This document shows positions 2,144 to 27,126 of a stretch of 38,438 nucleotides of DNA, in pieces. Made by a program: the position numbers and the translations under genes. The notes under the pieces are model-generated. The model worked only from the letters and a program-made list of their open reading frames with translations. It searched no databases and was not told where the DNA came from. This DNA comes from a virus. Taxonomy: Duplodnaviria; Heunggongvirae; Uroviricota; Caudoviricetes. The first letter of the stretch is position 1; every line of letters begins with the position of its first letter. The DNA lies in IMG/VR virus record IMGVR_UViG_2648501437_000025; one strand, 5' to 3'.

Positions 2144-2466
2144 CTACACACACTGCTCCTGAAAATACTGGTCATCCAGTGCAAAGATCACTGCTTCAAA
2201 TTCATCGCGCTCAATCAATACCGGATGAGTGGCTAAATATTCATTTATCTCTGTCAGAGATAAAGGCAAAGGCACCCCAGTCATTCCAGCATAACGTCGG
2301 GCACGGGATATTACCGAATAGGCGTACAACAATTCCTTAAGCACCGGGTCTATTTCTGGTTCCGGTATCGGTGGCAACCTGAGTTTTTCTCGCTTCCATC
2401 TTGCCTTTTCCCCCCTTTCTCCCCCGAACTCCGATAACCACCGTTGGGCGGCTATGGCTTTTTTAT
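2144..2466 (-). CDS. Tail assembly chaperone -1 frameshift extension (T portion of a G/GT pair)
   Basis: Frame open from the slippery site at the end of the upstream chaperone ORF through 2144; -1 frame relative to 2452..2913; no independent ATG or RBS. Confidence 0.6.
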
Positions 2467-2913
2467 CGTATCCTGCTTCTGCTGCTCTTTACCCTGGGCG
2501 ATGCTGGCTGCTTCTGCAAGGATCTGCCAGTACAACTCTGGATTCTGCTTAAGCAGCGCGATCCCTCGTTCTGGCGTATATTCCAGTGCAACCTCAACAC
2601 CATTAACCAGTTCACCAACCCCTTTCCAGTCTTTCAGCAGATAACGAGCGGCATTATCAATGAGTAAATCATCAACAGAATCCACCTCGGAAACCTTTGA
2701 AATATCAAACTCCTTCGTTCCGACGTGCAAACTGGCATCCATTTTCTCAATGTGGCGACGGATTAATGCATTACGGGAGCGATACTGATCGTTATCGCTG
2801 CTTGCCACCAACAGTTTTAACCCGTCTACAGGTTTTAAGTCCTTCATTGGCGTAAACCAGCGTTCTCCACCGATGATAATTTTCTGATTAAGAATAAACA
2901 TCCATAACCTCAT
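2452..2913 (-). CDS. Tail assembly chaperone (G-like)
   Basis: 153-aa ORF between major tail protein and tape measure; ends ...ATA AAA AAG CCA TAG, with the heptamer A AAA AAG in frame. Confidence 0.65.
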   Translation of the reverse strand: MRLWMFILNQKIIIGGERWFTPMKDLKPVDGLKLLVASSDNDQYRSRNALIRRHIEKMDASLHVGTKEFDISKVSEVDSVDDLLIDNAARYLLKDWKGVGELVNGVEVALEYTPERGIALLKQNPELYWQILAEAASIAQGKEQQKQDTIKKP

Positions 2914-10381: not shown

Positions 10382-11689
10382 TTAAATCCGAAGTGATGTG
10401 ACTCTTCCGGTCGGTTTGACAATAGGGAATTGCTTAACGATGAAATAACCTCCGGCATCATTCGGGTGATCATTGCCAGATTTTTTATCAGGCTCCCCCT
10501 TATCATCCCAGACCTGTTGCTCCAGAGATTCGGCATATACCGGACAACGCTTCACATTAACTTTATAGCGACGCTCACCATTGGCATTGCAGAACATTGC
10601 ATTCATTGAGTTAACGCGATCTTTTACTGGCGGGTTCGAGCTGTTCACCACAACGTTAAAACCAGCCTGCTTAAGCTGGGCTATATCCGTCGTACTTGCG
10701 TTACTTGATTTTCTGGAATCTCCGGAAGCATCTGGATAAATATAAATCTCCCTCACTTTCCGGTAATCATTCCCGTCATACAGCCAGAAGCGTTCTTTAA
10801 TGATGCGGATCATATCCGGCGTATCGTAGGCATTGATGATTTCAGTTACCGCACATGGAAGCCCCAAACGCAGCACATGGACGATCCCCGCCATCTTTCC
10901 AACGTTAAAATCCATCCCAATATAAATCGGCTCCCCTGGCTGCTCCACTTCTTCGCAATTATTCAGTTTCCGGTCAAACTGATGGTAAACAGTACCACTT
11001 GTCAGGTTAGTAAACTGTCCTCGAAGATAGGCTTTAATCAGCTCTGGAGGGTATGATTCAAGAAGCGAAGGAATGTAATCTGCTGGCAGGTTCTTTTCAT
11101 TATCGAAAGTAGATGCCTGCACCAGACCATACAGTGAGGCCAGCTCTGTTTTTTCACGCACGGCTTTAACAAACTGCTCGTAGACAAATTTGAATCCTTC
11201 CGGCGTGGTTGTAACGTCAATACCGTTGCGAAGTCCATCAATCTTATAACGCATACGCGCAATTATCTTGCGCCACGCCGTTCTGGCTTTTTCCTTCGGC
11301 AAAATGTCCAGTTCATCCACCAGCGCATTACCAATTTTGAAACCGACGATCGTTTGTGGCTTCTCCATCGATCTGCAGATAGTGGTTCCCCGATACTGGC
11401 GTCCGTAATAAAAGTGAACCTCTTTATTTCCCTCATTAATTTTTACGTTCAATCCCCAGTCAGCAGCAACTTCTTCCACTGTAGGGTAAAAAATATCGCG
11501 AATTTGGGGATACGTTGGCGCAAAATATCCCTGATTTATACCTGGATGCTCCCAAATCCCCTTGCATATGCCGCCACACCCAACCCATGTTTTGCCCGAG
11601 CCAAAACCAGCAATATAGGCTTTAAATTTATGGGGCATTGAAAGAAATCGCGCCTGAGGCACATTAAGCGTCGGAGAGATCATCTTCAT
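10382..11689 (-). CDS. Terminase large subunit
   Basis: Walker A-like GFGSGKT near the N-terminus, acidic nuclease-type C-terminal half; ATG at 11689 preceded by AAGGAG (track start 11692 is GTG). Confidence 0.85.
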   Translation of the reverse strand: MKMISPTLNVPQARFLSMPHKFKAYIAGFGSGKTWVGCGGICKGIWEHPGINQGYFAPTYPQIRDIFYPTVEEVAADWGLNVKINEGNKEVHFYYGRQYRGTTICRSMEKPQTIVGFKIGNALVDELDILPKEKARTAWRKIIARMRYKIDGLRNGIDVTTTPEGFKFVYEQFVKAVREKTELASLYGLVQASTFDNEKNLPADYIPSLLESYPPELIKAYLRGQFTNLTSGTVYHQFDRKLNNCEEVEQPGEPIYIGMDFNVGKMAGIVHVLRLGLPCAVTEIINAYDTPDMIRIIKERFWLYDGNDYRKVREIYIYPDASGDSRKSSNASTTDIAQLKQAGFNVVVNSSNPPVKDRVNSMNAMFCNANGERRYKVNVKRCPVYAESLEQQVWDDKGEPDKKSGNDHPNDAGGYFIVKQFPIVKPTGRVTSLRI

Positions 11690-12758
11690 CACTCCTTACT
11701 CTGGCATCAACCACATTAATATTGATCGCCACAGGCTGGGGATGTTCATTATCTTCCACCGTTTCGATCTCTTTGCGCAGCTTCTGGTTTTCCATTCTGC
11801 GTCGTTCAATTTCCAGTTCCTGTAGCCGCTTATCTGCACATAAAGCCCCGCCAGCAGAAAGCAAACGCAACAATTCACGCCGGGCGGCAGCCTTATCCTC
11901 CAGCAGGATCTCAACGCCGAATTTTCCGAGTTTTGCCCCTGCATATAATTGCCGCGCATCCCCATCAAGCAGAGTGGTATCAGCCATATAAAGCTGTCCC
12001 GTTCCCTCACCGCAGCACTTCGGGCAGTCCGGATTGGGTATGGCGTTATCAACAAAGCCGAGGCCTCCATATTCCGGTTCGGGTTTGCCATCTCTGGAAG
12101 CCTGCGCCGCTGCCTTGTCGAATTCTGCTATATCGCGCCACTGGTAGAGATGATTCTCGCCCCAGCAATAACGGCAGTTAACACGGCGAAATTGTGCAAG
12201 CTGATTGGGGTCGGCCAGGACAATGGCCATCAACTGACTCACCAGTAAATCCAGGTCTGCGGTATAGCGTTTCTGGTACTGATTGCGGAAGTAGCTGATA
12301 GCGCGAAAAACCCTGGCATTTCTAAGCATACGACTGGCGTTGCTGTTAGCTGTCGCACCTTGCCCCTCATAACCGGCTAGTCGGTACGCCTCTGTCGGCT
12401 TTTTCCCCTGAGCAACAAGCATCGCAAACTTAGCCTGCTGGTCAGAAATGCCGAATTCATCGGGACAGAACGAAAATTCCTCCGCGTCGCCCTCATTCAG
12501 GCCCGCATCGAATACTGGCTTTTTTTCCTGAGATTTTTCGTTCCGCTTTTGTGCAGTCTGCGCAGATTTTTTCTGCGCACTTTTTTGCGCAGTTTTGCGC
12601 ATTTCTGTCTGCGCATTTTTCGGAGGTTTTTTGATGTAACGACGGGCTGTTGCGTAATTCAGTCCCCTTGCTTCACACCATGCCACCGGAGATATACCGG
12701 AGCGGGTGTATTCAGCAATATACTCCTGCTGCAACGCCCCCCAGTCCGGTCTGCTCAT
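11664..12758 (-). CDS. Putative terminase small subunit / DNA-recognition packaging protein
   Basis: 364-aa ORF immediately upstream of the large terminase; basic N-terminal HTH-like segment and Cys cluster (CPKCCGEG). Confidence 0.5.
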   Translation of the reverse strand: MSRPDWGALQQEYIAEYTRSGISPVAWCEARGLNYATARRYIKKPPKNAQTEMRKTAQKSAQKKSAQTAQKRNEKSQEKKPVFDAGLNEGDAEEFSFCPDEFGISDQQAKFAMLVAQGKKPTEAYRLAGYEGQGATANSNASRMLRNARVFRAISYFRNQYQKRYTADLDLLVSQLMAIVLADPNQLAQFRRVNCRYCWGENHLYQWRDIAEFDKAAAQASRDGKPEPEYGGLGFVDNAIPNPDCPKCCGEGTGQLYMADTTLLDGDARQLYAGAKLGKFGVEILLEDKAAARRELLRLLSAGGALCADKRLQELEIERRRMENQKLRKEIETVEDNEHPQPVAININVVDARVRSDEDDLSDA

Positions 12759-12761
12759 CAG

Positions 12762-13013
12762 TTAGTCCTGATTTTTATCCACCCTGAGTAGTTCGCGCAG
12801 AGCAAAGGCATCCCCTTTTCTGGCAAGCTTAAACAATGCCGCTCGTAACTCGGCTTCACCTTTCGCTCTGCCCTTACGGATGGCCGCATAAAAATCTGTC
12901 ATTGCTTCCCGATTTTCTTTCAGTCGGTTCAGATCAACATCCAGAACGTCAGCGATTTGTTGTGCAGTCATCCGGCACGCTGCCAGAGACTCGACTTTCG
13001 AATACGGAATCAT
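12762..13013 (-). CDS. Small HTH-like protein upstream of the terminase genes
   Basis: 83-aa ORF with AGGGGTGA RBS; segment MTAQQIADVLDVDLNRLKE looks like a helix-turn-helix; overlaps the 3' end of the upstream gene by 65 nt. Confidence 0.4.
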   Translation of the reverse strand: MIPYSKVESLAACRMTAQQIADVLDVDLNRLKENREAMTDFYAAIRKGRAKGEAELRAALFKLARKGDAFALRELLRVDKNQD

Positions 13014-13881
13014 TTGTCACCCCTATTGATATGCAGGGTGTCTTCTTCCTGTATTTTTCGTGAAGGATTTTTACTGCAGCGTTGTTCCAGGTGACCTGAT
13101 GGTGAATGCGTTTATGGCTGGCACCCATCAGTGAGATTTTTACGCACGACGGCGCATACATGACGGAGTAAAAACTTTTAACGTAGGTTCCGGAATCCAG
13201 ATACAGCTCGGTCATTCCGCCGCTGTTTTTCTGCGTCTGTTTCTGCCCTAACTGGACAGCACCGATCGTCATAAACAATTCACCACAGCGACCGAGATTC
13301 GTGTACGTATTCACATCCTCGTTAATGCGCCCCATGAATGAGAACGGTCGATCAACCGAACAGATAAAGCTGTTCATTGCCTTGCGTTTCACCCACGAAG
13401 CATGGCCGCCATTGTCACCAAGAAAATCCCCGCCCTGCGACATAGCGATGGAAAGAGCAGGTATTGATTCGTAGTACGCCAGCATTTCAGAAAGGATCGC
13501 ATCCAGTTTCCTTATCGGAAAATAGGCCTGGTCATAGTTGCGATCCACCCGAAACTGGAACTCGTGATAATCATCATCGAGCTGAATGAAGTATTTACAC
13601 CCGACCAGTTTTGCCAGGTCGAAACAGGCATTACGGGCGTAAAAAATTGAGCGGCGGTCACCGAAATTATCGGCTTCGTCAAAACGACTGGCGATATCGG
13701 CTTTGGAAAACACCAGCACCTGTTCACCAAATTCAGCCATGTACTGATGCCGTGTCTTATCTTCATCATCAACAACGATAAAAATTTTCCCGGTATAGCC
13801 AGCACGACGCAACGTCCGGTAAGTCAGAACTTTGTCCGGTCGCCCGTGAGTCAGAATAAAGGCGCAAAAATCATCACGCAT
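12949..13881 (-). CDS. GT-A fold (family 2-like) glycosyltransferase-like protein
   Basis: N-terminal pattern FILTHGRPD...KIFIVVDDEDKT followed by LDDDYHEF (DxD-like) resembles GT2 signatures; ATG 13881 with GAGGAGGAGG RBS lies inside the end of the ParB-like gene. Possibly the intact counterpart of the K-12 Rac ydaY remnant (from memory). Confidence 0.5.
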   Translation of the reverse strand: MRDDFCAFILTHGRPDKVLTYRTLRRAGYTGKIFIVVDDEDKTRHQYMAEFGEQVLVFSKADIASRFDEADNFGDRRSIFYARNACFDLAKLVGCKYFIQLDDDYHEFQFRVDRNYDQAYFPIRKLDAILSEMLAYYESIPALSIAMSQGGDFLGDNGGHASWVKRKAMNSFICSVDRPFSFMGRINEDVNTYTNLGRCGELFMTIGAVQLGQKQTQKNSGGMTELYLDSGTYVKSFYSVMYAPSCVKISLMGASHKRIHHQVTWNNAAVKILHEKYRKKTPCISIGVTNDSVFESRVSGSVPDDCTTNR

Positions 13882-14665
13882 ATTCCTCCTCCTCACCACC
13901 ATGCATGATCTCCACCATGCGCTGCGTCATCCGGACAAATCCATTTTCAATAGCCTGCTGATAATCAATGATCACCAGCGCCGACTCCTCGAAAAAACAC
14001 TGAATTTCAGCGGGGGCGTGAGCGTAATAGTCCGCAATTCTGCTGAAATTAAACACCGTGTGACGTTCTGCCGCACACAGGAGGAATTTCTCAATATCAG
14101 GCTCAAGAGACGCCGAACGTATCCGGCTGATCAGCTCCTGAGTTTTCGTATCGTCGTACAGTTCACTGATATCCGGTTTACCGCCCGACGGCTCATAAAC
14201 AGGCGTATCAATTTTCGTCGTATACGGCTCCTCCTCATTTTCTGTACCGGGCAAAACATCCGTCAACAGTTCATCAATTTCTGTCGGGCTGAAGCCTGTC
14301 AGGGAGACATCAAAATCAGCATTGATTAGGTCCGACAGCTCCATCCGTAACAGATCTTCATCCCAGCCAGCATTCATCGGCAGGCGATTATCTGCCAGGC
14401 GGTACGCCTTTTTCTGATCATCCATCAAACCAGACAGAACGATGACCGGAATGGAATCCATTTTGAGCACTTCAGCCGCCATAACGCGACCGTGACCAGC
14501 AATAATTTCGCCCTTTTCATCAATCAGCACCGGATTAGTCCAGCCGAATTGCTTAATGCTTTCTACCAGTTGTGCCACCTGCTCAGGGCTGTGTGTCCTG
14601 GCGTTGTGTGCATACGGAGACAGTTCTTGTAAAGGGCGATAGACGATCTTCAATTTCTCGCTCAT
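13874..14665 (-). CDS. ynaK: ParB-like nuclease (ParB N-terminal / sulfiredoxin-like) domain protein
   Basis: N-terminal VYRPLQELSPYAHNARTHSPEQVAQLVESI...GEIIAGHGRV matches the ParB-N motif; acidic C-terminus; symbol by remembered similarity to the K-12 Rac YnaK fragment. Confidence 0.65.
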   Translation of the reverse strand: MSEKLKIVYRPLQELSPYAHNARTHSPEQVAQLVESIKQFGWTNPVLIDEKGEIIAGHGRVMAAEVLKMDSIPVIVLSGLMDDQKKAYRLADNRLPMNAGWDEDLLRMELSDLINADFDVSLTGFSPTEIDELLTDVLPGTENEEEPYTTKIDTPVYEPSGGKPDISELYDDTKTQELISRIRSASLEPDIEKFLLCAAERHTVFNFSRIADYYAHAPAEIQCFFEESALVIIDYQQAIENGFVRMTQRMVEIMHGGEEEEYA

Positions 14666-14802
14666 ACAGCCTTGCTTTATGAATAAAACGCACCCCAGCA
14701 GCCAGTGCTACTGGGGGCGGAGGTGTTGCTGGTAAAGTTAGGTATTGGATCAATGAGTGAGTCAATATAATATTAAACTCACAATTATAAATCAGCCATA
14801 TA

Positions 14803-16260
14803 TTAGGAGCGCCAAAAAAAACCTGAAAACAATATAATAACAGGATAAATTTCAAGGCGACCAAGAATCATAGCTATGCACATTAAATATTTTGCAATGT
14901 CATTAAGCACTCCGAATGACGATGCAGTAGCCCCAAAACCTAATCCCATATTATTAATACATGCAGCCACTGTTGCAAATGATGTAAGAAAATCATATCC
15001 CATACCATTTAACACCAGTATAAAAAACACCGTGAAGAGAGTATAAAGAAAAAAGAAACTCCATACAGACCTCATTACACGATCTGTAACTATCTTCCCT
15101 CCTACATTTACACTCAACAACGCTCTGGGATGAGAAAGCTGGTTTATCTCGTGTTTGCTTTGTTTGAAAAGTATAAGAAATCGAAGTGACTTAATTCCAC
15201 CACAAGTTGAACCTATACATCCCCCAAAGAAACTTGACAACAGCAAAAACACTATCGTGTGCGTGGGCCAGTTTGCATAATCCTGCGTAGCTAAACCATT
15301 ATCAGTGAGCATGGAGCTGGCAAGAAAAAACGAATGAATAAAACTTCCAGGCAAGTCATACATACCTATATGCCAGACCTGGAAAGAGGTAACAATGATC
15401 ACCCCTAAGGCTATTAACAGAAAGAAACGAAGTTCAATATCTCTGATTAAAGGTTTTAACGTTTTCCTGCTAATAACAATATACCAAAGGGTGAAGTTGA
15501 AAGCCGATAGCAGGGAAAAAGAACCAGCCACCAGCTCAACCAAATAGTTATTAAAATATCCGATACTCTCGCTATGAGTTGAGAAACCACCAAGCGAAAC
15601 TGTGGATATCCCGTGACAAATAGCATCAAACAAAGGCATTCCTGCAAGTCTATAACAGACAATACAAGCAATACCTAATAAAGAATAAGTTATCCAAAGT
15701 GTCCGTGACGTATCGGCCAGGCGGGGAGTAAGTTTGTCATCCTTAAATGGCCCTGGCATTTCTGACTGATAAAGCTTTGCACCACCAATACCCAATAATG
15801 GCAATACAGCAACCGCCAGAACAATAACTCCTAAACCACCTATAAAATTTAACTGCGACCGATAGTACAAATATGCCCGAGGTAATGAACTAACATCATC
15901 AATTACAGTTGCTCCTGTTGTTGTTATTCCAGAAACCCCTTCAAACAGAGCATCAATGAACGTTAAATTAAGTTCTGAGTCAATCCATAAAGGGAATGCA
16001 CTAATAACAGAAAACAAAATCCAAAACATTACAATTATAATAAACCCATCACGGGTACGTAATTGAATGCCAGATTTCTTAGTTGTATACCACGCTCCGC
16101 CACCAATGCAAAAAAATATAACGAAAGTTATAAAGAAAACGAACAGGCTTTTTTCTTTATAAAACAATGCTACAACCATTGGTGGCAACATTGAAAGACT
16201 ATAGAGCCAAACCAGGAACCCACACATATGAGTAACAACTCTTACATGAGATGTATTCAT
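14803..16260 (-). CDS. trkG: Trk-system potassium uptake protein TrkG (TrkH family)
   Basis: Polytopic membrane protein with repeated Gly-rich selectivity-filter-like segments (GITTTGATV, GGLGV, GLGFGAT); AT-rich gene between the lysis cassette and packaging genes as in K-12 Rac; ATG at 16260 (MNTSHVRVV...). Confidence 0.9.
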   Translation of the reverse strand: MNTSHVRVVTHMCGFLVWLYSLSMLPPMVVALFYKEKSLFVFFITFVIFFCIGGGAWYTTKKSGIQLRTRDGFIIIVMFWILFSVISAFPLWIDSELNLTFIDALFEGVSGITTTGATVIDDVSSLPRAYLYYRSQLNFIGGLGVIVLAVAVLPLLGIGGAKLYQSEMPGPFKDDKLTPRLADTSRTLWITYSLLGIACIVCYRLAGMPLFDAICHGISTVSLGGFSTHSESIGYFNNYLVELVAGSFSLLSAFNFTLWYIVISRKTLKPLIRDIELRFFLLIALGVIIVTSFQVWHIGMYDLPGSFIHSFFLASSMLTDNGLATQDYANWPTHTIVFLLLSSFFGGCIGSTCGGIKSLRFLILFKQSKHEINQLSHPRALLSVNVGGKIVTDRVMRSVWSFFFLYTLFTVFFILVLNGMGYDFLTSFATVAACINNMGLGFGATASSFGVLNDIAKYLMCIAMILGRLEIYPVIILFSGFFWRS

Positions 16261-16397
16261 ATCTAAATATTCTTTCAATTATAACCACCTTGCTGCAATA
16301 TTATGATTATACTGTATAAAATTTAACTCCTCTTAGATCTTACTTCACTGTTCCTTATGAAACAATCATCAAAATGAATCATATTGTAGTTAAGATT

Positions 16398-18251: not shown

Positions 18252-18326
<75 letters not shown>

Positions 18327-18332
18327 ATATGA

Positions 18333-18405
<73 letters not shown>

Positions 18406-18407
18406 AA

Positions 18408-18484
18408 TGGACCGTCACCGGGGACTCGAACCCCGCGCCATCAACTTCGAAGGCTGATGCTCTATCCGGATGAGCTAGTGACGG
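18408..18484 (-). tRNA. tRNA-Arg (anticodon TCG)
   Basis: Acceptor CCGTCAC/GTGACGG, D-arm GCTC...GAGC, anticodon stem TCAGC/GTTGA with loop CTTCGAA, T-arm CGGGG-TTCGAGT-CCCCG, encoded CCA. Confidence 0.8.
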
Positions 18485-20661: not shown

Positions 20662-21156
20662 TTAGTTTTGCTGTTCTATTTTAAGCTTGATAGTTTCATA
20701 CAAAACAATAGTTGCGCCTGTTTTACATAATTCCCGACTGTCATACGCACGAGACCAATAACACAACCAATTTTCAAGCTCTTCTCGTGTATAAATTTTA
20801 CAGGCCAGCCCCTCAGCCATCTCCACAACTTCATCGCCTGGTGCGGTTAATTCGTATCCATTTAACAATAAAAAAACCGCACCAGCCATCATTGCTGTGC
20901 GCTTGTTTGCATTGGCAAATGGATGATTCTGAATCAGACTTTCAATCAATACCGATGCCAGTACAAACATGTCGTTGGTTTGCTCATACCATCGAACCAT
21001 ACTGGGACGAGACTGAGAAGAACTTAAATTATCAACACTCAGCACACCAACAGGTTCATCTGGTGTTTGAAGCTCAATTAAAAGGCGATTAATTTCAGTA
21101 AGATCATCAACCGAAAGGTAGTGCACTCCTTCAACAATCTCAGCCATAGAGCACAA
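20662..21156 (-). CDS. doc: Doc-family toxin (Fic/Doc fold)
   Basis: Contains HPFANANKRTAMMAG, a variant of the Fic/Doc HxFx(D/N)(A/G)NKR active-site motif; preceded by a small partner ORF. Confidence 0.8.
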   Translation of the reverse strand: MCSMAEIVEGVHYLSVDDLTEINRLLIELQTPDEPVGVLSVDNLSSSQSRPSMVRWYEQTNDMFVLASVLIESLIQNHPFANANKRTAMMAGAVFLLLNGYELTAPGDEVVEMAEGLACKIYTREELENWLCYWSRAYDSRELCKTGATIVLYETIKLKIEQQN

Positions 21157-21806: not shown

Positions 21807-21949
21807 ATCTATCTGCCGTTGGTGTTCATGCCCGAGGCTGATAGCCTCAAGCACCCGCAGCAATTTTACTTAATTTCCCTTTAGTCAGAAATCATTTTTT
21901 AATCTATCTTGAAACAAGACTCAAATTCACAAATAAATTAAATATAAAA

Positions 21950-22852
21950 CTAAAACTCTATTTTTTGTGCCGGACGTGAGTTTAAAATCCAGCACTCCTG
22001 ATGTGTATGATGTATAGTTAGTAGATTGTCAAACTGAGATTTCTTAGCGTCAAATTCCATTTTATTTTTAAAGTCAACATTAAAATCTCCTGTTTCAATA
22101 GAGGCAAGAGCTTTGAGTCTATTGCATTCAGCATGCATATCAATTATATCGCTAAAACCTTCGCTTTTAATTCTTTTATTAACATAGTTCGTATAAATCC
22201 CTGCATGTTTATAAGAATCCATCACAGTGTATAATCCATCACCATCAATATCTGTAGGAGATGACATCCATTTAAAAACATGTAGAAGAAAAATATTTGC
22301 TGACCAAGGAAACACCACCCCATTAGCAAATGTTTCTGAAGTACCAGAACTAAGACTTTCATTAAGATTAGTCGCACCGATTAAGATCACATCGGTTTCA
22401 AACTCGTTCCGTTTACCAGCACCTACAAAATTAAAGGTCCCGGCATAGCATTGCCCAAGATAAACAACAGCATTTTTAAGATTTGGGGCTTCCTTCAAAG
22501 CCTTCAGTAATTGGCTTGGTGGGATAGGTTTCTGTGCATCAAGTCCATGAGGGCCACCATGACCAGTTACAAACATAACTATGTTATCATATGTATTATC
22601 ATTTAAGTCATTAAAAAAAACTGCTGATGGTTTTGACTTAAAAGGATATCTAGAAGCGAGTGCAAAAGCACCATCGTAATTCATTGAAGGGCTATCTATA
22701 TATATCGAAATATCATCTGGATTGATACCTGCCTTTTCGAGGCACATCACACCAAAGACTAAATCGACAACATGACGAAATTCCACTGCAGCTTTCGAAC
22801 AAGGCAAAAACATCACCCACCTTGTGCGTTCAGACCTAAGACTCATATACAT
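21950..22852 (-). CDS. Clan CD (legumain/caspase-like) cysteine peptidase-like protein
   Basis: Motifs NIVMFVTGHGGPHG and NAVVYLGQCYAG, 37 residues apart, follow the hydrophobic strand + His-Gly ... hydrophobic strand + Cys layout of legumain/caspase catalytic dyads; AT-rich gene; alternative start at 22813 with AAGGTGG RBS. Confidence 0.55.
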   Translation of the reverse strand: MYMSLRSERTRWVMFLPCSKAAVEFRHVVDLVFGVMCLEKAGINPDDISIYIDSPSMNYDGAFALASRYPFKSKPSAVFFNDLNDNTYDNIVMFVTGHGGPHGLDAQKPIPPSQLLKALKEAPNLKNAVVYLGQCYAGTFNFVGAGKRNEFETDVILIGATNLNESLSSGTSETFANGVVFPWSANIFLLHVFKWMSSPTDIDGDGLYTVMDSYKHAGIYTNYVNKRIKSEGFSDIIDMHAECNRLKALASIETGDFNVDFKNKMEFDAKKSQFDNLLTIHHTHQECWILNSRPAQKIEF

Positions 22853-22877
22853 CCTTGGTGGTTCGAAATGTACTTAA

Positions 22878-23174
22878 TTAAAGATTAAAATTATATCCAG
22901 AGAACACTGTATTACTGAGTGATGATGGTCTTGGTAAATCACTAAAATAAAACACTTCATCAATACTCAAGTGTTCGGTAATTTTTGTGGGCATAATCTG
23001 CCCTCGCTCATTCATGCCAAAGATATCATTACCGGTTTTTAGAAAAAATGTTATTTCCACGGTAATCCTGTAACTATTGGATTTGAAAAGCATCCATTGC
23101 CCAAGATTCACACACTCTTTTACTGCATCAGAGGTATCAGGCAACTCAGAAGATTGTAACCCCGTGAATTTCAT
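22878..23174 (-). CDS. Hypothetical 98-aa protein, first gene of the AT-rich island
   Basis: ORF with AAGGA RBS 8 nt upstream of the ATG at 23174; 25 nt upstream of the peptidase-like gene; no recognisable motif. Confidence 0.5.
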   Translation of the reverse strand: MKFTGLQSSELPDTSDAVKECVNLGQWMLFKSNSYRITVEITFFLKTGNDIFGMNERGQIMPTKITEHLSIDEVFYFSDLPRPSSLSNTVFSGYNFNL

Positions 23175-23302
23175 TTTCAGTCCTTATAGCTGCTTATGTA
23201 CTGAATTGCACTAAGCAACCTTTAATACCATTGCGACGAACAACAACCGTGTGATCGCTACCACGACCACACTGAAAATATAACTTTACATATTCATTAT
23301 CG

Positions 23303-23386
23303 TCAACCCCAGCGGCAAATCGAATACACCACCAGCGCCACCGCCATCGCAATTCCTACCGTAGTGAATGCCTCAGGCCAGGTCAT
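23303..23386 (-). CDS. 27-aa hydrophobic micro-ORF, translationally coupled
   Basis: MTWPEAFTTVGIAMAVALVVYSICRWG; ATG overlaps the stop of the upstream gene (ATGA) and is preceded by AGGAGGTGA at 5-nt spacing. Confidence 0.4.
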   Translation of the reverse strand: MTWPEAFTTVGIAMAVALVVYSICRWG

Positions 23387-23778
23387 TGATTCACCTCCTG
23401 CTCAATATTTTTCAGATCATTTTCCGCATACAGTATTGCTGTCCTGGCTGCTCGTAACCGGGCTTTGGCATTTTTCTCTTCACGTTCAAGTTTTGCCACA
23501 GCTTCACGAAGAGCATCCCGCTTTGCATAGAGTGATTTAATCTCAGTCACGATGTTTTCACCGTTTCTCGCACGGTCAAGAACAAGCTCGAACGGATCTA
23601 AAGCCAATCCACACCGTTTGCAGGTAATCGTACGATTCACTTCTGAAATTGTTGTACGGATATGCTGACAGCATTTTTGCTCGACACTTTTTTCGTCGGT
23701 TATCACAACGTTGAGGAGTCCTTCCTCCTCTGATTTTGGCTGCACCAGGGTGATAACATTGTCGCCTTCATTTTTCAT
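23383..23778 (-). CDS. Zinc-ribbon + coiled-coil protein (paralog A)
   Basis: CCQH...CKRCG...DPF followed by a charged coiled-coil (EREEKNAKARLRAA); shares this architecture with the ORF at 25529..25927. Confidence 0.5.
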   Translation of the reverse strand: MKNEGDNVITLVQPKSEEEGLLNVVITDEKSVEQKCCQHIRTTISEVNRTITCKRCGLALDPFELVLDRARNGENIVTEIKSLYAKRDALREAVAKLEREEKNAKARLRAARTAILYAENDLKNIEQEVNQ

Positions 23779-24290
23779 CAGTTCACCTCCTGCGGTGGTT
23801 CCGGTAGCGGCATCCAGTGAGTTGCCTGCTCAATACCATTACCCGGCTTAATCGTTGCTTCCCCTCGCCGGAATGTGCTTCCTGTATAGCGTGCGGAGCA
23901 TATTAGCGGTTCAACCAGAGAGCTATCGAAATTCACCGAAATAAGCACGTTCTGATTCTTTTCCGGCATTCGCTCACTACAGCTTATCCATGCATCCGGA
24001 GTTGCCGGCACTGGCTGGGCGGTGTAAAGTGGAACAACTCGCCCTCCCCATTGCTTAACACTACTCTCAGCGAACACTAAATGCTCAGTCCGATAATACC
24101 CAGGGGCATCAATATCTTTTCTTTCGCTATCCCACATGTAAACCACCGGCTCTGCTTCCAGCGATGCCAGTGCGATACGAAACACATTGGCAAGCAGGCT
24201 GTCTGAAGATTGGTTATCGTGCGCCGGGTCGCTCAGGAAACCAGTGATGAATGATTTAATCTCCGCTTTTTCTCTGGTAATAGTGGTCAT
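23778..24290 (-). CDS. DUF551-domain protein
   Basis: C-terminal segment WISCSERMPEKNQNVLISVN...THWMPLPEPP resembles the DUF551 signature from memory; start placed at ATG 24290 (MTTITREK...), 1 nt after the upstream stop. Confidence 0.6.
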   Translation of the reverse strand: MTTITREKAEIKSFITGFLSDPAHDNQSSDSLLANVFRIALASLEAEPVVYMWDSERKDIDAPGYYRTEHLVFAESSVKQWGGRVVPLYTAQPVPATPDAWISCSERMPEKNQNVLISVNFDSSLVEPLICSARYTGSTFRRGEATIKPGNGIEQATHWMPLPEPPQEVN

Positions 24291-24291
24291 T

Positions 24292-24510
24292 TCAGCTTTC
24301 CTTATATGGGTTGATTTTGTTGTGCAATGTGTTGAACGACGCCCATACCACGTCGTTATACAATTCAATAACTGGCTCAATTATTTTCCCGATTGCCCAG
24401 ACAAAAATTAGCGGGGATATCGGTATCATCAACACGATAAACAGAATGAGAAACAAAAATTCTGTCGCTCTACTTTTTCGCGGATATTCTTTTCTGAATA
24501 ATGTAGGCAC
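24292..24510 (-). CDS. Small membrane protein (72 aa)
   Basis: Hydrophobic core FLFLILFIVLMIPISPLIFVWAIG; stop immediately before the DUF551 start. Confidence 0.45.
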   Translation of the reverse strand: MPTLFRKEYPRKSRATEFLFLILFIVLMIPISPLIFVWAIGKIIEPVIELYNDVVWASFNTLHNKINPYKES

Positions 24511-24511
24511 A

Positions 24512-24727
24512 TCACTCTCCTTTGTTGCTTCTCAAAATTTTATGCCCTGGCGCAAAAGCACGCGTTTTGTCGACGCTTATTCGCCACCCATCTTTACGTG
24601 CCTCTTTTGCACTGCCAGCCCATGACGTACCGATATACTCACCAAAATCTGGCGACTGATATTTGCCATCCGTACACTGGCGGCAATCACAATAGAGATG
24701 CATGGTGTAACTTGCGGCAATACTCAT
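24512..24727 (-). CDS. Hypothetical Cys-rich 71-aa protein
   Basis: ORF with CDCRQC motif, packed in the nin operon. Confidence 0.4.
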   Translation of the reverse strand: MSIAASYTMHLYCDCRQCTDGKYQSPDFGEYIGTSWAGSAKEARKDGWRISVDKTRAFAPGHKILRSNKGE

Positions 24728-25087
24728 TCAGCCTCCTTTGATGCCTGTGTTTACAACCAGGCAGGCTTCCTTGAGTACCCAGTCAATAGCGTCTTTCCAT
24801 GCTCCGGTTTCAACTGGCGGATTCTCACGCCGTACCTGTTCATAAAAGCGCACAGCTTTAACCAGCCCTTCTGATGACACCGGGGCTGGCGGGGCCGTGA
24901 ATAACGCCTGAATTTCATAGTTCGGTCTGTCGTTACAATCTTCTTTTGTCGGGGCATATTTCCAGTCACCAAACCACGACTTACCCTGAGAGTCCGTAAC
25001 GCCTTTTTTCACGTAGCGATACCGCCATGCAACTGGTTTTGCCTGCCCTGCCGTTTCATGCCCTTCCTGATAATTAATCTCACTCAT
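24728..25087 (-). CDS. Hypothetical nin-region protein (119 aa)
   Basis: ORF with ATGA overlap to the upstream small ORF. Confidence 0.45.
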   Translation of the reverse strand: MSEINYQEGHETAGQAKPVAWRYRYVKKGVTDSQGKSWFGDWKYAPTKEDCNDRPNYEIQALFTAPPAPVSSEGLVKAVRFYEQVRRENPPVETGAWKDAIDWVLKEACLVVNTGIKGG

Positions 25088-25260
25088 TCATCGCCCCACT
25101 CATCACAATATGCTTCGACCGGAGTTTTTCCTGCTTCATAATCATCACGCCATGCTTCAGCATCAGCGGCACTTCCACCGCGTAACTCTGCATAATCCAT
25201 TAACAGTTCATGCCATTCTTCAAAACTGGCGTTATATTTAGTTGAACCAAAATCAGCCAT
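25084..25260 (-). CDS. Small acidic protein (58 aa)
   Basis: MADFGSTKYNASFEEWHELLMDYAELRGGSAADAEAWRDDYEAGKTPVEAYCDEWGDE from my translation; stop overlaps the next start; below the track cutoff. Confidence 0.4.
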   Translation of the reverse strand: MADFGSTKYNASFEEWHELLMDYAELRGGSAADAEAWRDDYEAGKTPVEAYCDEWGDE

Positions 25261-25435
25261 TTTGCTCTTCCTCTTCGTCTTTTATTTCGTGATATGAGTA
25301 ATTGCAGTAGTTAAAGAAAATTTCTTTTGCTTCGTCCTTTATTTCATCTGGTGTCGCATCATCATCCACTTCGAATACATCTTCAAAATCTCCACCAGCT
25401 ATTCCCGTTTCAATAATTATTTTGAACTTTCGCAT
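25253..25435 (-). CDS. Small highly acidic protein (60 aa)
   Basis: Asp/Glu-rich (FEVDDDATPDEIKDEAKE...KDEEEEQNG); a GC hairpin sits between a GGAGG element and its ATG. Confidence 0.45.
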   Translation of the reverse strand: MRKFKIIIETGIAGGDFEDVFEVDDDATPDEIKDEAKEIFFNYCNYSYHEIKDEEEEQNG

Positions 25436-25528
25436 TTCATTACCGCCCTTTCGGGCGGCCTCCTGATGTTCTGAGGGTGCAGAAATCCCTCCGGTTAAGG
25501 ATTAAATTTTTAACACTACTAAATTTAA

Positions 25529-25927
25529 TTATTCAGTTCTGGATTTTGTCGCTCTGCGTATCCGCGCTTTCGCGTTACGCTCAATCTGAATTAACTTTTC
25601 TATATTTTTCCGCCTTTCCTGTTCCTCCTGGCGCAATAGCCTTACATCATCTGCCAGTCTGGTTTCTCTTTTCGCCACTGAGAGCATCCAGTCAAACGGC
25701 TCCACAACTGCACCGCAGTTTTTACAGCGGACCTGACGCTCTTTTTCGTCAACCCGGACAGAAGCGTGATGGCAGTATGGTCTTTCCGATGGCTCATAAA
25801 GAAAATTAACCTGATTACGTGGGTCATCCTCTTTTACCGGAAATAAAACAATATTACTTAACTCATCTTCTGGATTTATTTCCACGTCACTCTCCTTTGA
25901 TGCGAATGCCAGCGACGCGTGGCACAT
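25529..25927 (-). CDS. Zinc-ribbon + coiled-coil protein (paralog B)
   Basis: YCHH...CKNCG...EPF then coiled-coil ERNAKARIRRA; start placed at ATG 25927 (track start 25966 is TTG). Confidence 0.5.
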   Translation of the reverse strand: MCHASLAFASKESDVEINPEDELSNIVLFPVKEDDPRNQVNFLYEPSERPYCHHASVRVDEKERQVRCKNCGAVVEPFDWMLSVAKRETRLADDVRLLRQEEQERRKNIEKLIQIERNAKARIRRATKSRTE

Positions 25928-26309
25928 TAACTTCCACAATGCGCACAGTTGGTTTGTACATCTCAATTGCTGTCAGCCAGTCAGCGCCAGTCATGCGCTT
26001 TTCTGCATCGCCATTAGTCCACTTAACCGGTACACCAATAGCCTTCATCGCGATTTCTATTTCCCCGGCAATGGCGCTTTTTCCACAACCAGTAAAACCA
26101 GAAACAACGACAAGAACTTCGCCTTTGGCTGGTTTTATTTCCCGTGCTTCCAGTTCTGCAATGCGCTTCTCTGCGGCTTCCAGCTCAACACGCAGCTTCC
26201 CTACCGTTAGCGCAATTTCCTCGTTCTCCTGATCGCGGCGTTTTATGTATTGCTGGTTTCTTTCCAGTTCATCCAGTAATGCCAGCACAACCTGAGGTGT
26301 GACCTTCAT
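25887..26309 (-). CDS. Hypothetical protein with P-loop-like GFTGCGKS segment
   Basis: Coiled-coil N-terminus, then VVVSGFTGCGKSAIAG; start uncertain (ATG 26309, or TTG 26426 per the track). Confidence 0.4.
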   Translation of the reverse strand: MKVTPQVVLALLDELERNQQYIKRRDQENEEIALTVGKLRVELEAAEKRIAELEAREIKPAKGEVLVVVSGFTGCGKSAIAGEIEIAMKAIGVPVKWTNGDAEKRMTGADWLTAIEMYKPTVRIVEVNVPRVAGIRIKGE

Positions 26310-26382
26310 ACGAAATGCCAGCAATTTTTGTGGTGTGGCTGCTATTTTTATTGCTTCTGCCGCCCCACGCAGTGCCTGATAG

Positions 26383-27126
26383 TCAATCTTGCTCACTGGT
26401 TGCCTCCTGGCAAAGTTGGGCGACAATATCGCGATATTTATTCAGCTCCCGCAGCGCGGCACATACTCGCTCCCATTTCCGGATATCACTTTTCGCCCGA
26501 CGCAGTTCGCGGTTTGCCTGTCGCAGCGATGGCAGAACCAGATTATCCACTCGCTTCTCAAGCGGCTGCACAATGCCCGCCACAGTTTCTGTTTTAATAT
26601 CTTCCTGTGTTGCAGCTTCCTGTACTGGTAACGCAACACATGCAGGCTGAGGAAAGGCTTTACCATCAGTTTCCGCTACCGATGCCGCTTTCGGCTCTGC
26701 TGGTAAATTACCGCCCGGCATGCAGTAACGAAATTTACCGTTCTGATTAACACGAATCAGACGACCTTTGCTGATTGCCATTGCCAGCGTTGAAGCCACT
26801 TTGCGTGATGTGGTGCCGAAAAACGTAGCCAGTTCATCCGCCGTTTGTGGGCCACGTTGTTCAATCGTCGCGGTTAAATCGCACTCTGAGATTTTCGCTA
26901 CTGTTGCCATGGTGGTTTCTTCCGGCAGCTCTGCCGGCGCTGGCTGTTCCTGCTGAACGTTGTTATCAGCCACGCGCCAGGTGTATACGCTTTTATCAAC
27001 GAAGCCAGCCTTTTTCAGTTCCCACAGCTCGTTCAGCACTTCTTCTCGACTGATATCAAGTCGCGTAGCCAGTTCTACCGACGTGGCTTTTCCCATCGCT
27101 TTCAGTGCGTCAAAAACGGTCTCCAT
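26383..27126 (-). CDS. Winged-helix DNA-binding protein (two WH-like segments)
   Basis: Repeated pattern of the [30 protein letters not shown] type; ATG 27126 with GGGAGGAAA RBS. Confidence 0.5.

Follow-up and report, generated by a model that had tools for sequence, protein, structure and literature searches.

The 38,438-nt stretch analysed here (IMG/VR virus record IMGVR_UViG_2648501437_000025, hereafter "the window") is a Rac-family lambdoid prophage of Escherichia coli spanning the tail genes to intR, and it contains a pair of adjoining minus-strand genes for a ParB-like protein and a soluble glycosyltransferase. The upstream gene (13874..14665, stop codon included) is a full-length form of ynaK and specifies a 263-aa putative adaptor of the ParB/Srx fold, an assignment based on matches to Pfam ParB_N and phrog_620 (3e-89) and on Foldseek. 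The downstream gene (12949..13881) specifies a 310-aa GT-A glycosyltransferase of the TET-associated glycosyltransferase family (TAGT, PF20691), also termed "GREB1-related protein". An initial annotation, made from the sequence alone, had placed this pair between trkG and the packaging genes, where both open reading frames (ORFs) were indeed recovered, and had proposed that the codons for the end of the ParB-like protein form the ribosome-binding site of the next gene and overlap its ATG. Direct reading of the junction, GGTGGTGAGGAGGAGGAATATGCGTGA on the minus strand, bears this out. A Shine-Dalgarno-like sequence, GAGGAGGAGG (13885..13894), lies within Glu codons of the ParB-like gene, whose product ends in ...MHGGEEEEYA, and its GGAGG core is 6 nt 5' of the glycosyltransferase ATG at 13881. 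The start of the glycosyltransferase gene and the stop codon (TGA) of the ParB-like gene share 8 nt, ATGCGTGA (13874..13881). The longest ORF for the glycosyltransferase (12949..13902, 317 aa) begins at a position supported neither by the Prokaryotic Genome Annotation Pipeline (PGAP) nor by homologues; the 310-aa start (MRDDF...) is both the PGAP start (WP_001204031.1) and the point at which homologues begin.

The coupling of the two genes is not a matter of chance, because a homologous partner adjoins the glycosyltransferase in every locus of the comparison: an ORF matching the partner profile was found upstream of the glycosyltransferase gene, on the same strand, in 170 of 170 loci. IMG/VR supplied 80 Rac-like prophages and 80 diverse contigs, to which were added two annotated E. 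coli chromosomes, four metagenomic places and four cultured phages. An initial IMG/VR scan returned near-identical Rac prophages only, and the diverse contigs were obtained with the enzyme of a Lactobacillus phage as seed, to which their enzymes are 40-50% identical. The carriers belong to Proteobacteria, Firmicutes, Actinobacteria and Bacteroidota, together with a haloarchaeal virus. The paired genes nearly always overlap, the exceptions being a few loci with a 12-nt gap or with one gene in between. Overlaps of 4-26 nt were also evident from independent gene calls or annotations in three metagenomic phages, Lactobacillus gasseri phage phi jlb1, the haloarchaeal (Haloarcula) virus HHTV-2, Nocardia phage NTR1 and a Porphyromonas gingivalis phage; the enzyme of the last is just 27% identical. 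Among 117 non-redundant pairs, the pairwise identities of partner and glycosyltransferase correlate with r=0.93. As judged from these sequence comparisons, partner and glycosyltransferase genes travel together in a fixed arrangement from phylum to phylum, which upholds the suggestion of the initial annotation that such tight coupling denotes one functional unit. Natural fusions of partner and glycosyltransferase were also sought, and only two singletons were found, both of which resemble frameshift or deletion artefacts.

The glycosyltransferase matches PF20691 over residues 8-222 with 121.5 bits against a cutoff of 27.5, and phrog_842 at 8.6e-104; the identical protein carries the GREB1-related name in recent PGAP runs. 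The first description of this product, as a soluble glycosyltransferase with a DDD motif, agrees with what was found. Its predicted fold is GT-A, the DDD motif occupies residues 102-104, and all of 31 homologues (60-100% identity) have R14, D38/D41, D102-D104 and E188-D189 unchanged. An R...DDD...EDY/F arrangement is the signature described for phage DNA GT-A enzymes (bioRxiv 10.1101/2023.12.21.572611). The isoelectric point (pI) is 8.0 and the highest 19-residue Kyte-Doolittle mean is 1.08, and thus the protein has no membrane segment. On the evidence of 33 E. coli alleles, with a ratio of nonsynonymous to synonymous polymorphism (pN/pS) of 0.115 and zero internal stops, the gene is under purifying selection; its catalytic motifs are intact. 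The family is large, with 1,495 representatives (at 50% identity) at E ≤ 1e-3 and 712 at E ≤ 1e-30. The association with TET from which TAGT takes its name was not seen in the annotated loci of the module. Several Lactobacillus delbrueckii phages, namely phiLdb (KF188410/NC_022762), LL-Ku (AY739900), Ld17 (KJ564037) and Ld25A (KJ564036), have the TAGT gene broken into two pieces or incomplete, which suggests that the module is decaying in some lineages of dairy phages.

The partner protein can be divided into three parts. Residues 1-135 (14261..14665, minus strand, as are the parts that follow) form a ParB N-terminal nucleotide-binding-type domain with a helical segment, modelled by AlphaFold2 (AF2) with a predicted local distance difference test score (pLDDT) of 75-91 and aligning with Noc/ParB at Box II. 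An acidic linker of residues 136-170 (14156..14260) is predicted to be disordered, with pLDDT below 50 for residues 137-170, and residues 171-263 (13877..14155) make up a C-terminal helical domain, its helical portion covering residues 171-255, that includes the acidic tail in which the ribosome-binding site of the next gene is encoded. For the N-domain, Pfam ParB_N (PF02195) scored 27.9 bits against a cutoff of 26.3, a Protein Data Bank profile search gave Noc/ParB at 2e-5, and Foldseek returned Noc, ParB, KorB, PadC and sulfiredoxin (Srx) with a probability of 1.0, as well as a serine kinase. Profile and fold thus both place the domain in the ParB/Srx superfamily, and the folds suspected at the outset for the two proteins, GT-A and ParB, were both predicted. 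Box II reads GHGR rather than GERR, so that its Glu and first Arg are replaced, and it keeps the Arg whose mutation abolishes nucleoside triphosphate (NTP) binding in other ParBs. The same N-domain is known from DNA methyltransferases, as it matches phrog_498 "DNA methyltransferase" (2.5e-50, within residues 3-146) and PADLOC MTase_II (1.8e-38, residues 10-146), and 453 phage records, mostly annotated as DNA methylases, match it at 30-56% identity; against the N-termini of annotated phage DNA methylases the identity is 40-56%. The C-domain is also covered in just 23 of those 453. Full-length 263-aa homologues of the partner were found across Enterobacterales, and its gene has zero internal stops in 17 alleles.

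It is the remainder of the partner that appears specific to the enzyme. The linker carries a motif, Y148-T-x-K-I-x-x-P155-x-Y157-x-P, of which Y148, T149, K151, P155, Y157 and P159, together with P164, are invariant in 34 enterobacterial sequences and strongly conserved in the 117 diverse pairs. The C-domain has a strongly conserved core block (FL..AA.RHT.F.F..IADYY...SALVIIDY..AI) and is modelled with pLDDT 30-60; it has no Pfam family, PF23887 having matched at a sub-threshold level only. A partner with both N-domain and C-domain was present in 158 loci, linker motif plus C-domain without the ParB N-domain in five complete loci, and an N-domain alone beside TAGT in none of the complete loci. 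Given this distribution, the C-domain and motif constitute the enzyme-specific part of the partner and the ParB N-domain a frequent, generic addition. The five ParB-less partners (those of Vibrio phage pv27 and of loci L101, L102, L105 and L106) are 121-145 aa long. That of pv27 (L090 7459-7878) is 52% identical to the window protein over residues 136-244 (E 2e-39) and keeps the linker motif; the pair lies there among replication genes and not before a terminase, with a separate "partition protein" ~11 kb away.

The initial annotation had taken the ParB-like protein for a DNA-targeting domain, a view in need of revision: neither Pfam profiles nor the AF2 model revealed a helix-turn-helix (HTH) domain, and the protein has a pI of 4.5. 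What goes with the enzyme in every case is the C-domain, not the ParB domain. From its sequence and predicted structure, it looks like an adaptor or activator rather than the DNA-targeting domain itself. A canonical partition ParB was considered and rejected, since TIGR00180 scored 36 bits against a cutoff of 58.45, Box II reads GHGR and there is no HTH; no ParA gene is annotated in the prophage, and no parS-like inverted repeat of ≥12 nt was found within 12700-14900. A ParB-DNA methyltransferase fusion was likewise rejected, the match being confined to the N-domain, with no methyltransferase domain detected by Pfam. Apart from this ParB-methyltransferase similarity, PADLOC made no defence-system assignment. 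In Yersinia phage vB_YpM_39 (L177 415-3418), a 196-aa ParB N-domain protein is 56% identical to the N-domain of the window and has no TAGT-specific C-domain; its gene immediately precedes one for a small HTH protein and one for a GpA terminase, and no glycosyltransferase is present. Such ParB N-domain proteins seem, from gene order, to be a general pre-terminase fixture.

In the window, the 3' end of the glycosyltransferase gene overlaps by 23 nt a gene for a small terminase-associated HTH-like protein (12762..12971, 69 aa according to PGAP; phrog_309 terminase small subunit, 8e-23). This is followed by genes for the terminase small subunit (11664..12758; Pfam Terminase_2, phrog_51 1.7e-76) and the terminase large subunit (10382..11692; an ORF that PGAP names "terminase large subunit domain-containing protein"), all of them on the minus strand. 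Because these overlapping genes lead into the terminase genes, the ParB-like/glycosyltransferase pair heads a tightly packed packaging operon. Its upstream boundary is a terminator-like minus-strand hairpin (14693..14716; a 10-bp stem, 7 of its pairs GC, followed by a T-rich stretch), situated 28 nt 5' of the ParB-like start, which closes the trkG moron. The trkG gene (14803-16278) is a low-GC insertion between the lysis genes and the module, with a GC fraction of 0.31-0.40 versus 0.47-0.50 for the module. Elsewhere in the prophage, three tRNA genes (Gly-UCC, Thr-UGU and Arg-UCG; 18252-18484) separate the Q-like region from the lysis genes. The stretch 21873-26422 is variable relative to the two closest annotated Rac prophages and includes DUF551 and Ead/Ea22-like genes as well as a 300-aa ORF (21950-22852) with a weak match to Peptidase_C13 (caspase-like); a Fic/DOC protein is encoded just beyond it (20662-21156). 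In a closely related Rac prophage (strain AH19B041; L002 29381-30046), an epoxyqueuosine reductase, QueH, is annotated where the window has other genes.

Escherichia coli K-12 retains little of the module. An 11.6-kb deletion joins window position 14412 to 2803 and takes out the rest of the ParB-like gene, the whole glycosyltransferase gene and the head genes. The ParB-like gene survives in K-12 as its first ~85 codons, ynaK (L176 2878-3141), which encodes an 87-aa YnaK. Thus, of the two K-12 genes that the initial annotation had named as remnants, ynaK is one, whereas ydaY, situated close to the tail genes at window 2452-2913, is unrelated to the glycosyltransferase. In genomes identical to the window, PGAP calls the intact 263-aa gene a 258-nt "ynaK" pseudogene with "missing C-terminus" (window 14408-14665, equivalent to 21709-21966 of L001/L002), likely because the truncated K-12 YnaK serves as the reference. 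Overexpression of the truncated K-12 ynaK has been reported to raise the minimum inhibitory concentrations of six antibiotics (PMC12924614).

Among the other carriers, the usual place of the module is after the early and recombination genes (RusA and others) and before the terminase, and the terminases that follow belong to at least five families: Terminase_2 (with a P22-like head, as in the window), Terminase_3, Terminase_4 with TerL, GpA and Terminase_6. Exceptions are one metagenomic contig without a recognised terminase nearby and 191-kb Vibrio phages in which the module lies among replication genes. Several loci carry a TAGT fused to another domain, namely a class I S-adenosylmethionine (SAM) methyltransferase of O-methyltransferase type, Sulfotransfer_2, a second TAGT, or an N-terminal Walker-A P-loop (GASCAGKS), these fusion variants being located at P0286/L171 3418-5190, P0248/L172 7001-8755, P0266 and P0264/L174 1879-3270. 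On one contig an epimerase and a cytidylyltransferase of CMP-sugar type are also encoded; on a different one, a radical-SAM gene lies directly 5' of the ParB-like gene. The partner gene is upstream in all of these enzyme variants, and terminase genes come next in loci that are long enough. Such fusions and neighbours look like a glycan-building core with optional tailoring, and by analogy the accessory set resembles that of known DNA-glycan pathways. Of 5,426 complete E. coli genomes, 867 (~16%) contain no less than 80% of the 2.1-kb module region, and the enzyme is matched by only 36 of 50,697 phage records.

Comparison with known systems yielded partial parallels for each half of the module. 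The beta-glucosyl-HMC-alpha-glucosyltransferase of T2/T6 shares PF20691, phrog_842 and the predicted GT-A fold with the window enzyme, and it adds a second glucose onto glucosyl-5-hydroxymethylcytosine (PMC13216743). However, that enzyme acts after a dedicated glucosyl-5-hydroxymethylcytosine pathway and has no reported ParB-type partner, whereas the window enzyme has an obligate upstream partner and no annotated hydroxymethylcytosine (hmC) pathway; tblastn with members of the clade retrieved no T-even phage, even at E 0.01. The GT-A enzymes of phage C5-methyltransferase/5mYOX (TET) clusters (Burke 2021, PMC8256090; bioRxiv 10.1101/2023.12.21.572611) have the same R...DDD...ED motifs, and those clusters also often have ParB-like and terminase neighbours and sugar-tailoring accessory enzymes. 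Their glycosyltransferases adjoin a methyltransferase or dioxygenase making 5-hydroxymethylcytosine (5hmC) or 5-hydroxymethyluracil (5hmU), in contrast to the window clade, in the annotated loci of which there is none. More broadly, characterised viral members of the TAGT family all glycosylate DNA (PMC13216743; bioRxiv 10.1101/2023.12.21.572611), and a "solitary" TAGT homologue, without either T4-type glycosyltransferase, was reported in 288 of 753 glycosyltransferase-encoding phage genomes (PMC13216743). Outside viruses, the glycosyltransferase domain of GREB1, an animal O-GlcNAc transferase, is homologous to the window enzyme; GREB1 has 1949 aa and several domains, is cytoplasmic and acts on estrogen receptor alpha (ER-alpha), whereas the window enzyme is a bare catalytic domain with a different partner.

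For the partner, the closest parallel in layout is the 5mYOX176/ParB176 pair, in which a phage ParB specifically activates its cognate thymine dioxygenase, which depends on it only when acting on double-stranded DNA (dsDNA) (PMC13229309). When the AF2 layout of the window partner is set against the published description of ParB176, both show an N-domain, a disordered linker (of ~50 aa in ParB176) and a C-domain, without an HTH and beside the client gene. The clients differ, being an iron/2-oxoglutarate-dependent dioxygenase for ParB176 and a glycosyltransferase for the window protein, and according to the preprint of PMC13229309, ParB-dependent dioxygenases go with kinase/amino-acid-transferase pathways while dioxygenases linked to glycosyltransferases are ParB-independent. 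Phage fusions of ParB to N6/N4 DNA methyltransferases, which are enriched in prophages (PMC12704722), have an N-terminal ~140 aa homologous to the window partner at 30-56% identity. In these fusions the ParB module is covalently joined to the methyltransferase, whereas in the window it belongs to a protein of its own that has an additional C-domain, and the enzyme is a glycosyltransferase. Finally, DpdB is a ParB-fold ATPase that acts with DpdA in the Dpd 7-deazaguanine DNA modification (PMC10164549); it differs in its DGQQR motif, SspE-like C-domain, base-exchange chemistry and location in a bacterial defence island, the window module belonging to a phage late operon.

Our best reading of the module, which we advance tentatively and as rather less than probable, is that a DNA glycosyltransferase, expressed late and assisted by an adaptor, marks progeny DNA as it is packaged. 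The module would be a two-protein, post-replicative DNA-glycosylation module expressed late alongside the packaging genes, in which the glycosyltransferase would be a catalytically intact GT-A transferase drawing on a host nucleotide-sugar, and the partner a cognate adaptor or activator, not a partition protein. The linker motif and C-domain of the partner would dock the glycosyltransferase, and its ParB-type N-domain would engage duplex DNA or clamp the complex on it, perhaps under NTP control. Progeny genomes would be marked shortly before or during packaging, which would shield them against nucleases when they enter the next host. DNA is put forward as the target because the viral TAGT members glycosylate DNA, the N-domain is a phage DNA methyltransferase module, and ParB-fold partners have precedents. 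As the carriers have unrelated terminases, capsids and host envelopes, packaged dsDNA would also be the obvious substrate common to them. An older proposal, as quoted in PMC8256090, has phage ParBs directing modification enzymes to DNA during packaging. The initial annotation had suggested DNA or virion modification or anti-defence; the TAGT family and the methyltransferase-type N-domain favour DNA modification among these. Since no enzyme making a hydroxymethylated pyrimidine was found encoded, DNA glycosylation by the enzyme is something that we infer, as are the binding of partner to glycosyltransferase, DNA as the acceptor and the biological purpose.

A number of observations weigh against this reading, foremost the missing source of an acceptor. 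To our knowledge, every characterised DNA glycosyltransferase of the TAGT and related families needs a hydroxyl handle, be it 5hmC, 5hmU or a DNA-borne sugar. Existing annotation shows no TET/JBP (5mYOX) enzyme, no hydroxymethylase of thymidylate-synthase type and no C5-methyltransferase in the variable region of the window, in either of the annotated Rac-type prophages, among 48 of the 54 features of the 38-kb phage phi jlb1, or in ten Pfam-annotated metagenomic places; these negatives depend on that annotation, and a very divergent enzyme could escape it. No hydroxymethylase was seen in the 64 kb checked of Vibrio phage pv27. Glycosyltransferase contigs without dioxygenase or ThyS neighbours have been judged "less likely" to act on DNA (bioRxiv 10.1101/2023.12.21.572611). 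The partner itself is acidic throughout and has no recognisable DNA-binding domain, its Box II is without the Glu and first Arg of GERR, so that NTP switching would be conjectural, and in five loci the enzyme is accompanied by a partner lacking the ParB domain altogether. The C-terminal halves of both structural models, glycosyltransferase and partner, are of low confidence, and the homologous domain of GREB1 is known to O-GlcNAcylate a protein, ER-alpha (PMC7968844). A bolder possibility would be that a GT-A transferase, kept on the duplex by its dedicated adaptor, glycosylates canonical DNA directly, without prior hydroxymethylation, whether on an exocyclic amine, on the backbone or at an end generated by packaging, but we consider this unlikely.

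The precedent of GREB1 also underlies the main rival, that the enzyme is a protein glycosyltransferase whose acceptor is the Tyr/Thr motif of its own partner, YTxKIxxPxYxP (primed as in glycogenin), or some other protein of phage or host; the partner would act as substrate or scaffold. We hold this alternative to be unlikely. It would be served by the invariant Y148, T149 and Y157, which lie in a segment of pLDDT <50, and by the fact that the linker motif accompanies the enzyme even where the ParB domain is missing; it calls for no hydroxylated-base pathway, and none is annotated in the two Rac-type prophages or among the 48 phi jlb1 features, and methyl- and sulfotransferase fusions would suit glycoprotein tailoring just as well. 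Set against this, the N-domain is common specifically to DNA methyltransferases, the nearest characterised viral relatives act on DNA, and terminase, portal and capsid families vary among the carriers, so that no shared virion acceptor is evident. The acceptor problem would also be solved if the target were RNA, a nucleotide or a small molecule (tRNA ribose or a modified base, or a defence signalling nucleotide) modified as a late counter-defence, given that hydroxyl acceptors are plentiful on RNA and nucleotides; the ParB/Srx fold does include the small-molecule- or protein-directed enzymes SerK, SbnI and Srx, and there are tRNA genes in the prophage. We regard this as improbable, as no family member is known with an RNA or small-molecule target, it would be difficult to account for a place at the head of a packaging operon instead of with the early anti-defence genes, and the other carriers show no conserved link to tRNA genes.

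Alternatively, the hydroxyl handle could be brought in by an invader: in a prophage-borne defence, the enzyme would sugar the hydroxymethylated DNA of superinfecting, T-even-like phages, which would block their replication or expose them to sugar-dependent nucleases. Such a role has been raised for prophage glycosyltransferases (bioRxiv 10.1101/2023.12.21.572611), would use the 5hmC acceptor usual for the family, and would agree with the module being very common among E. coli prophages. It is nonetheless quite improbable, given that a gene in a late operon, 3' of the lysis genes and joined to the terminase genes, should be silent in the lysogen, that the placement is the same in phages of hosts without known hmC phages, and that PADLOC did not match the module as a defence protein. 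That ParB N-domain proteins occur directly 5' of terminases without a glycosyltransferase, as in vB_YpM_39, and that the glycosyltransferase gene is broken in several L. delbrueckii phages, would fit a ParB-like protein acting as a packaging or late-gene accessory (a nuclease or a terminase-helping clamp), with the glycosyltransferase as a passenger of unrelated or lost role. We think this very improbable in light of the invariant catalytic motifs and low pN/pS, the pairing in all 170 loci, and a C-domain that is found only with TAGT and dispenses with the ParB domain in some loci. Least credible of all is a lysogenic conversion in which the enzyme changes a glycan of the cell surface, either O-antigen or teichoic acid, in the manner of Gtr proteins or TarP: the protein has no membrane segment, its gene lies in a late operon and is paired with that of a ParB-type protein, and the same module occurs in Gram-negative, Gram-positive and archaeal hosts that have no common envelope acceptor.

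Relative to the literature consulted, four aspects of the module appear to be new: the strict coupling of the two genes, the C-domain and motif as the enzyme-specific portion of the partner, the independence from an acceptor-making enzyme, and the prevalence. ParB-like neighbours of phage glycosyltransferases have been mentioned only in passing (bioRxiv 10.1101/2023.12.21.572611), and a survey of ParB-fold proteins (PMC12704722) does not mention glycosyltransferases. The gene pair thereby unites two questions, namely the role of "solitary" TAGTs (PMC13216743) and that of orphan phage ParB-fold proteins (PMC12704722), and E. coli K-12, which is without both genes, offers a clean genetic background. 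If direct glycosylation of canonical DNA were true, a previously unknown DNA modification would exist in about one-sixth of sequenced E. coli, as well as in phages of at least four bacterial phyla and of haloarchaea. Glycosylated DNA without a hydroxymethyl handle would be new nucleic-acid chemistry, with a bearing on the evasion of restriction and defence, on sequencing artefacts and on enzyme tools. If the product were instead a glycoprotein, the module would give bacterial viruses a counterpart of GREB1. In both cases, the C-domain and the Tyr/Pro motif would define a new glycosyltransferase adaptor.

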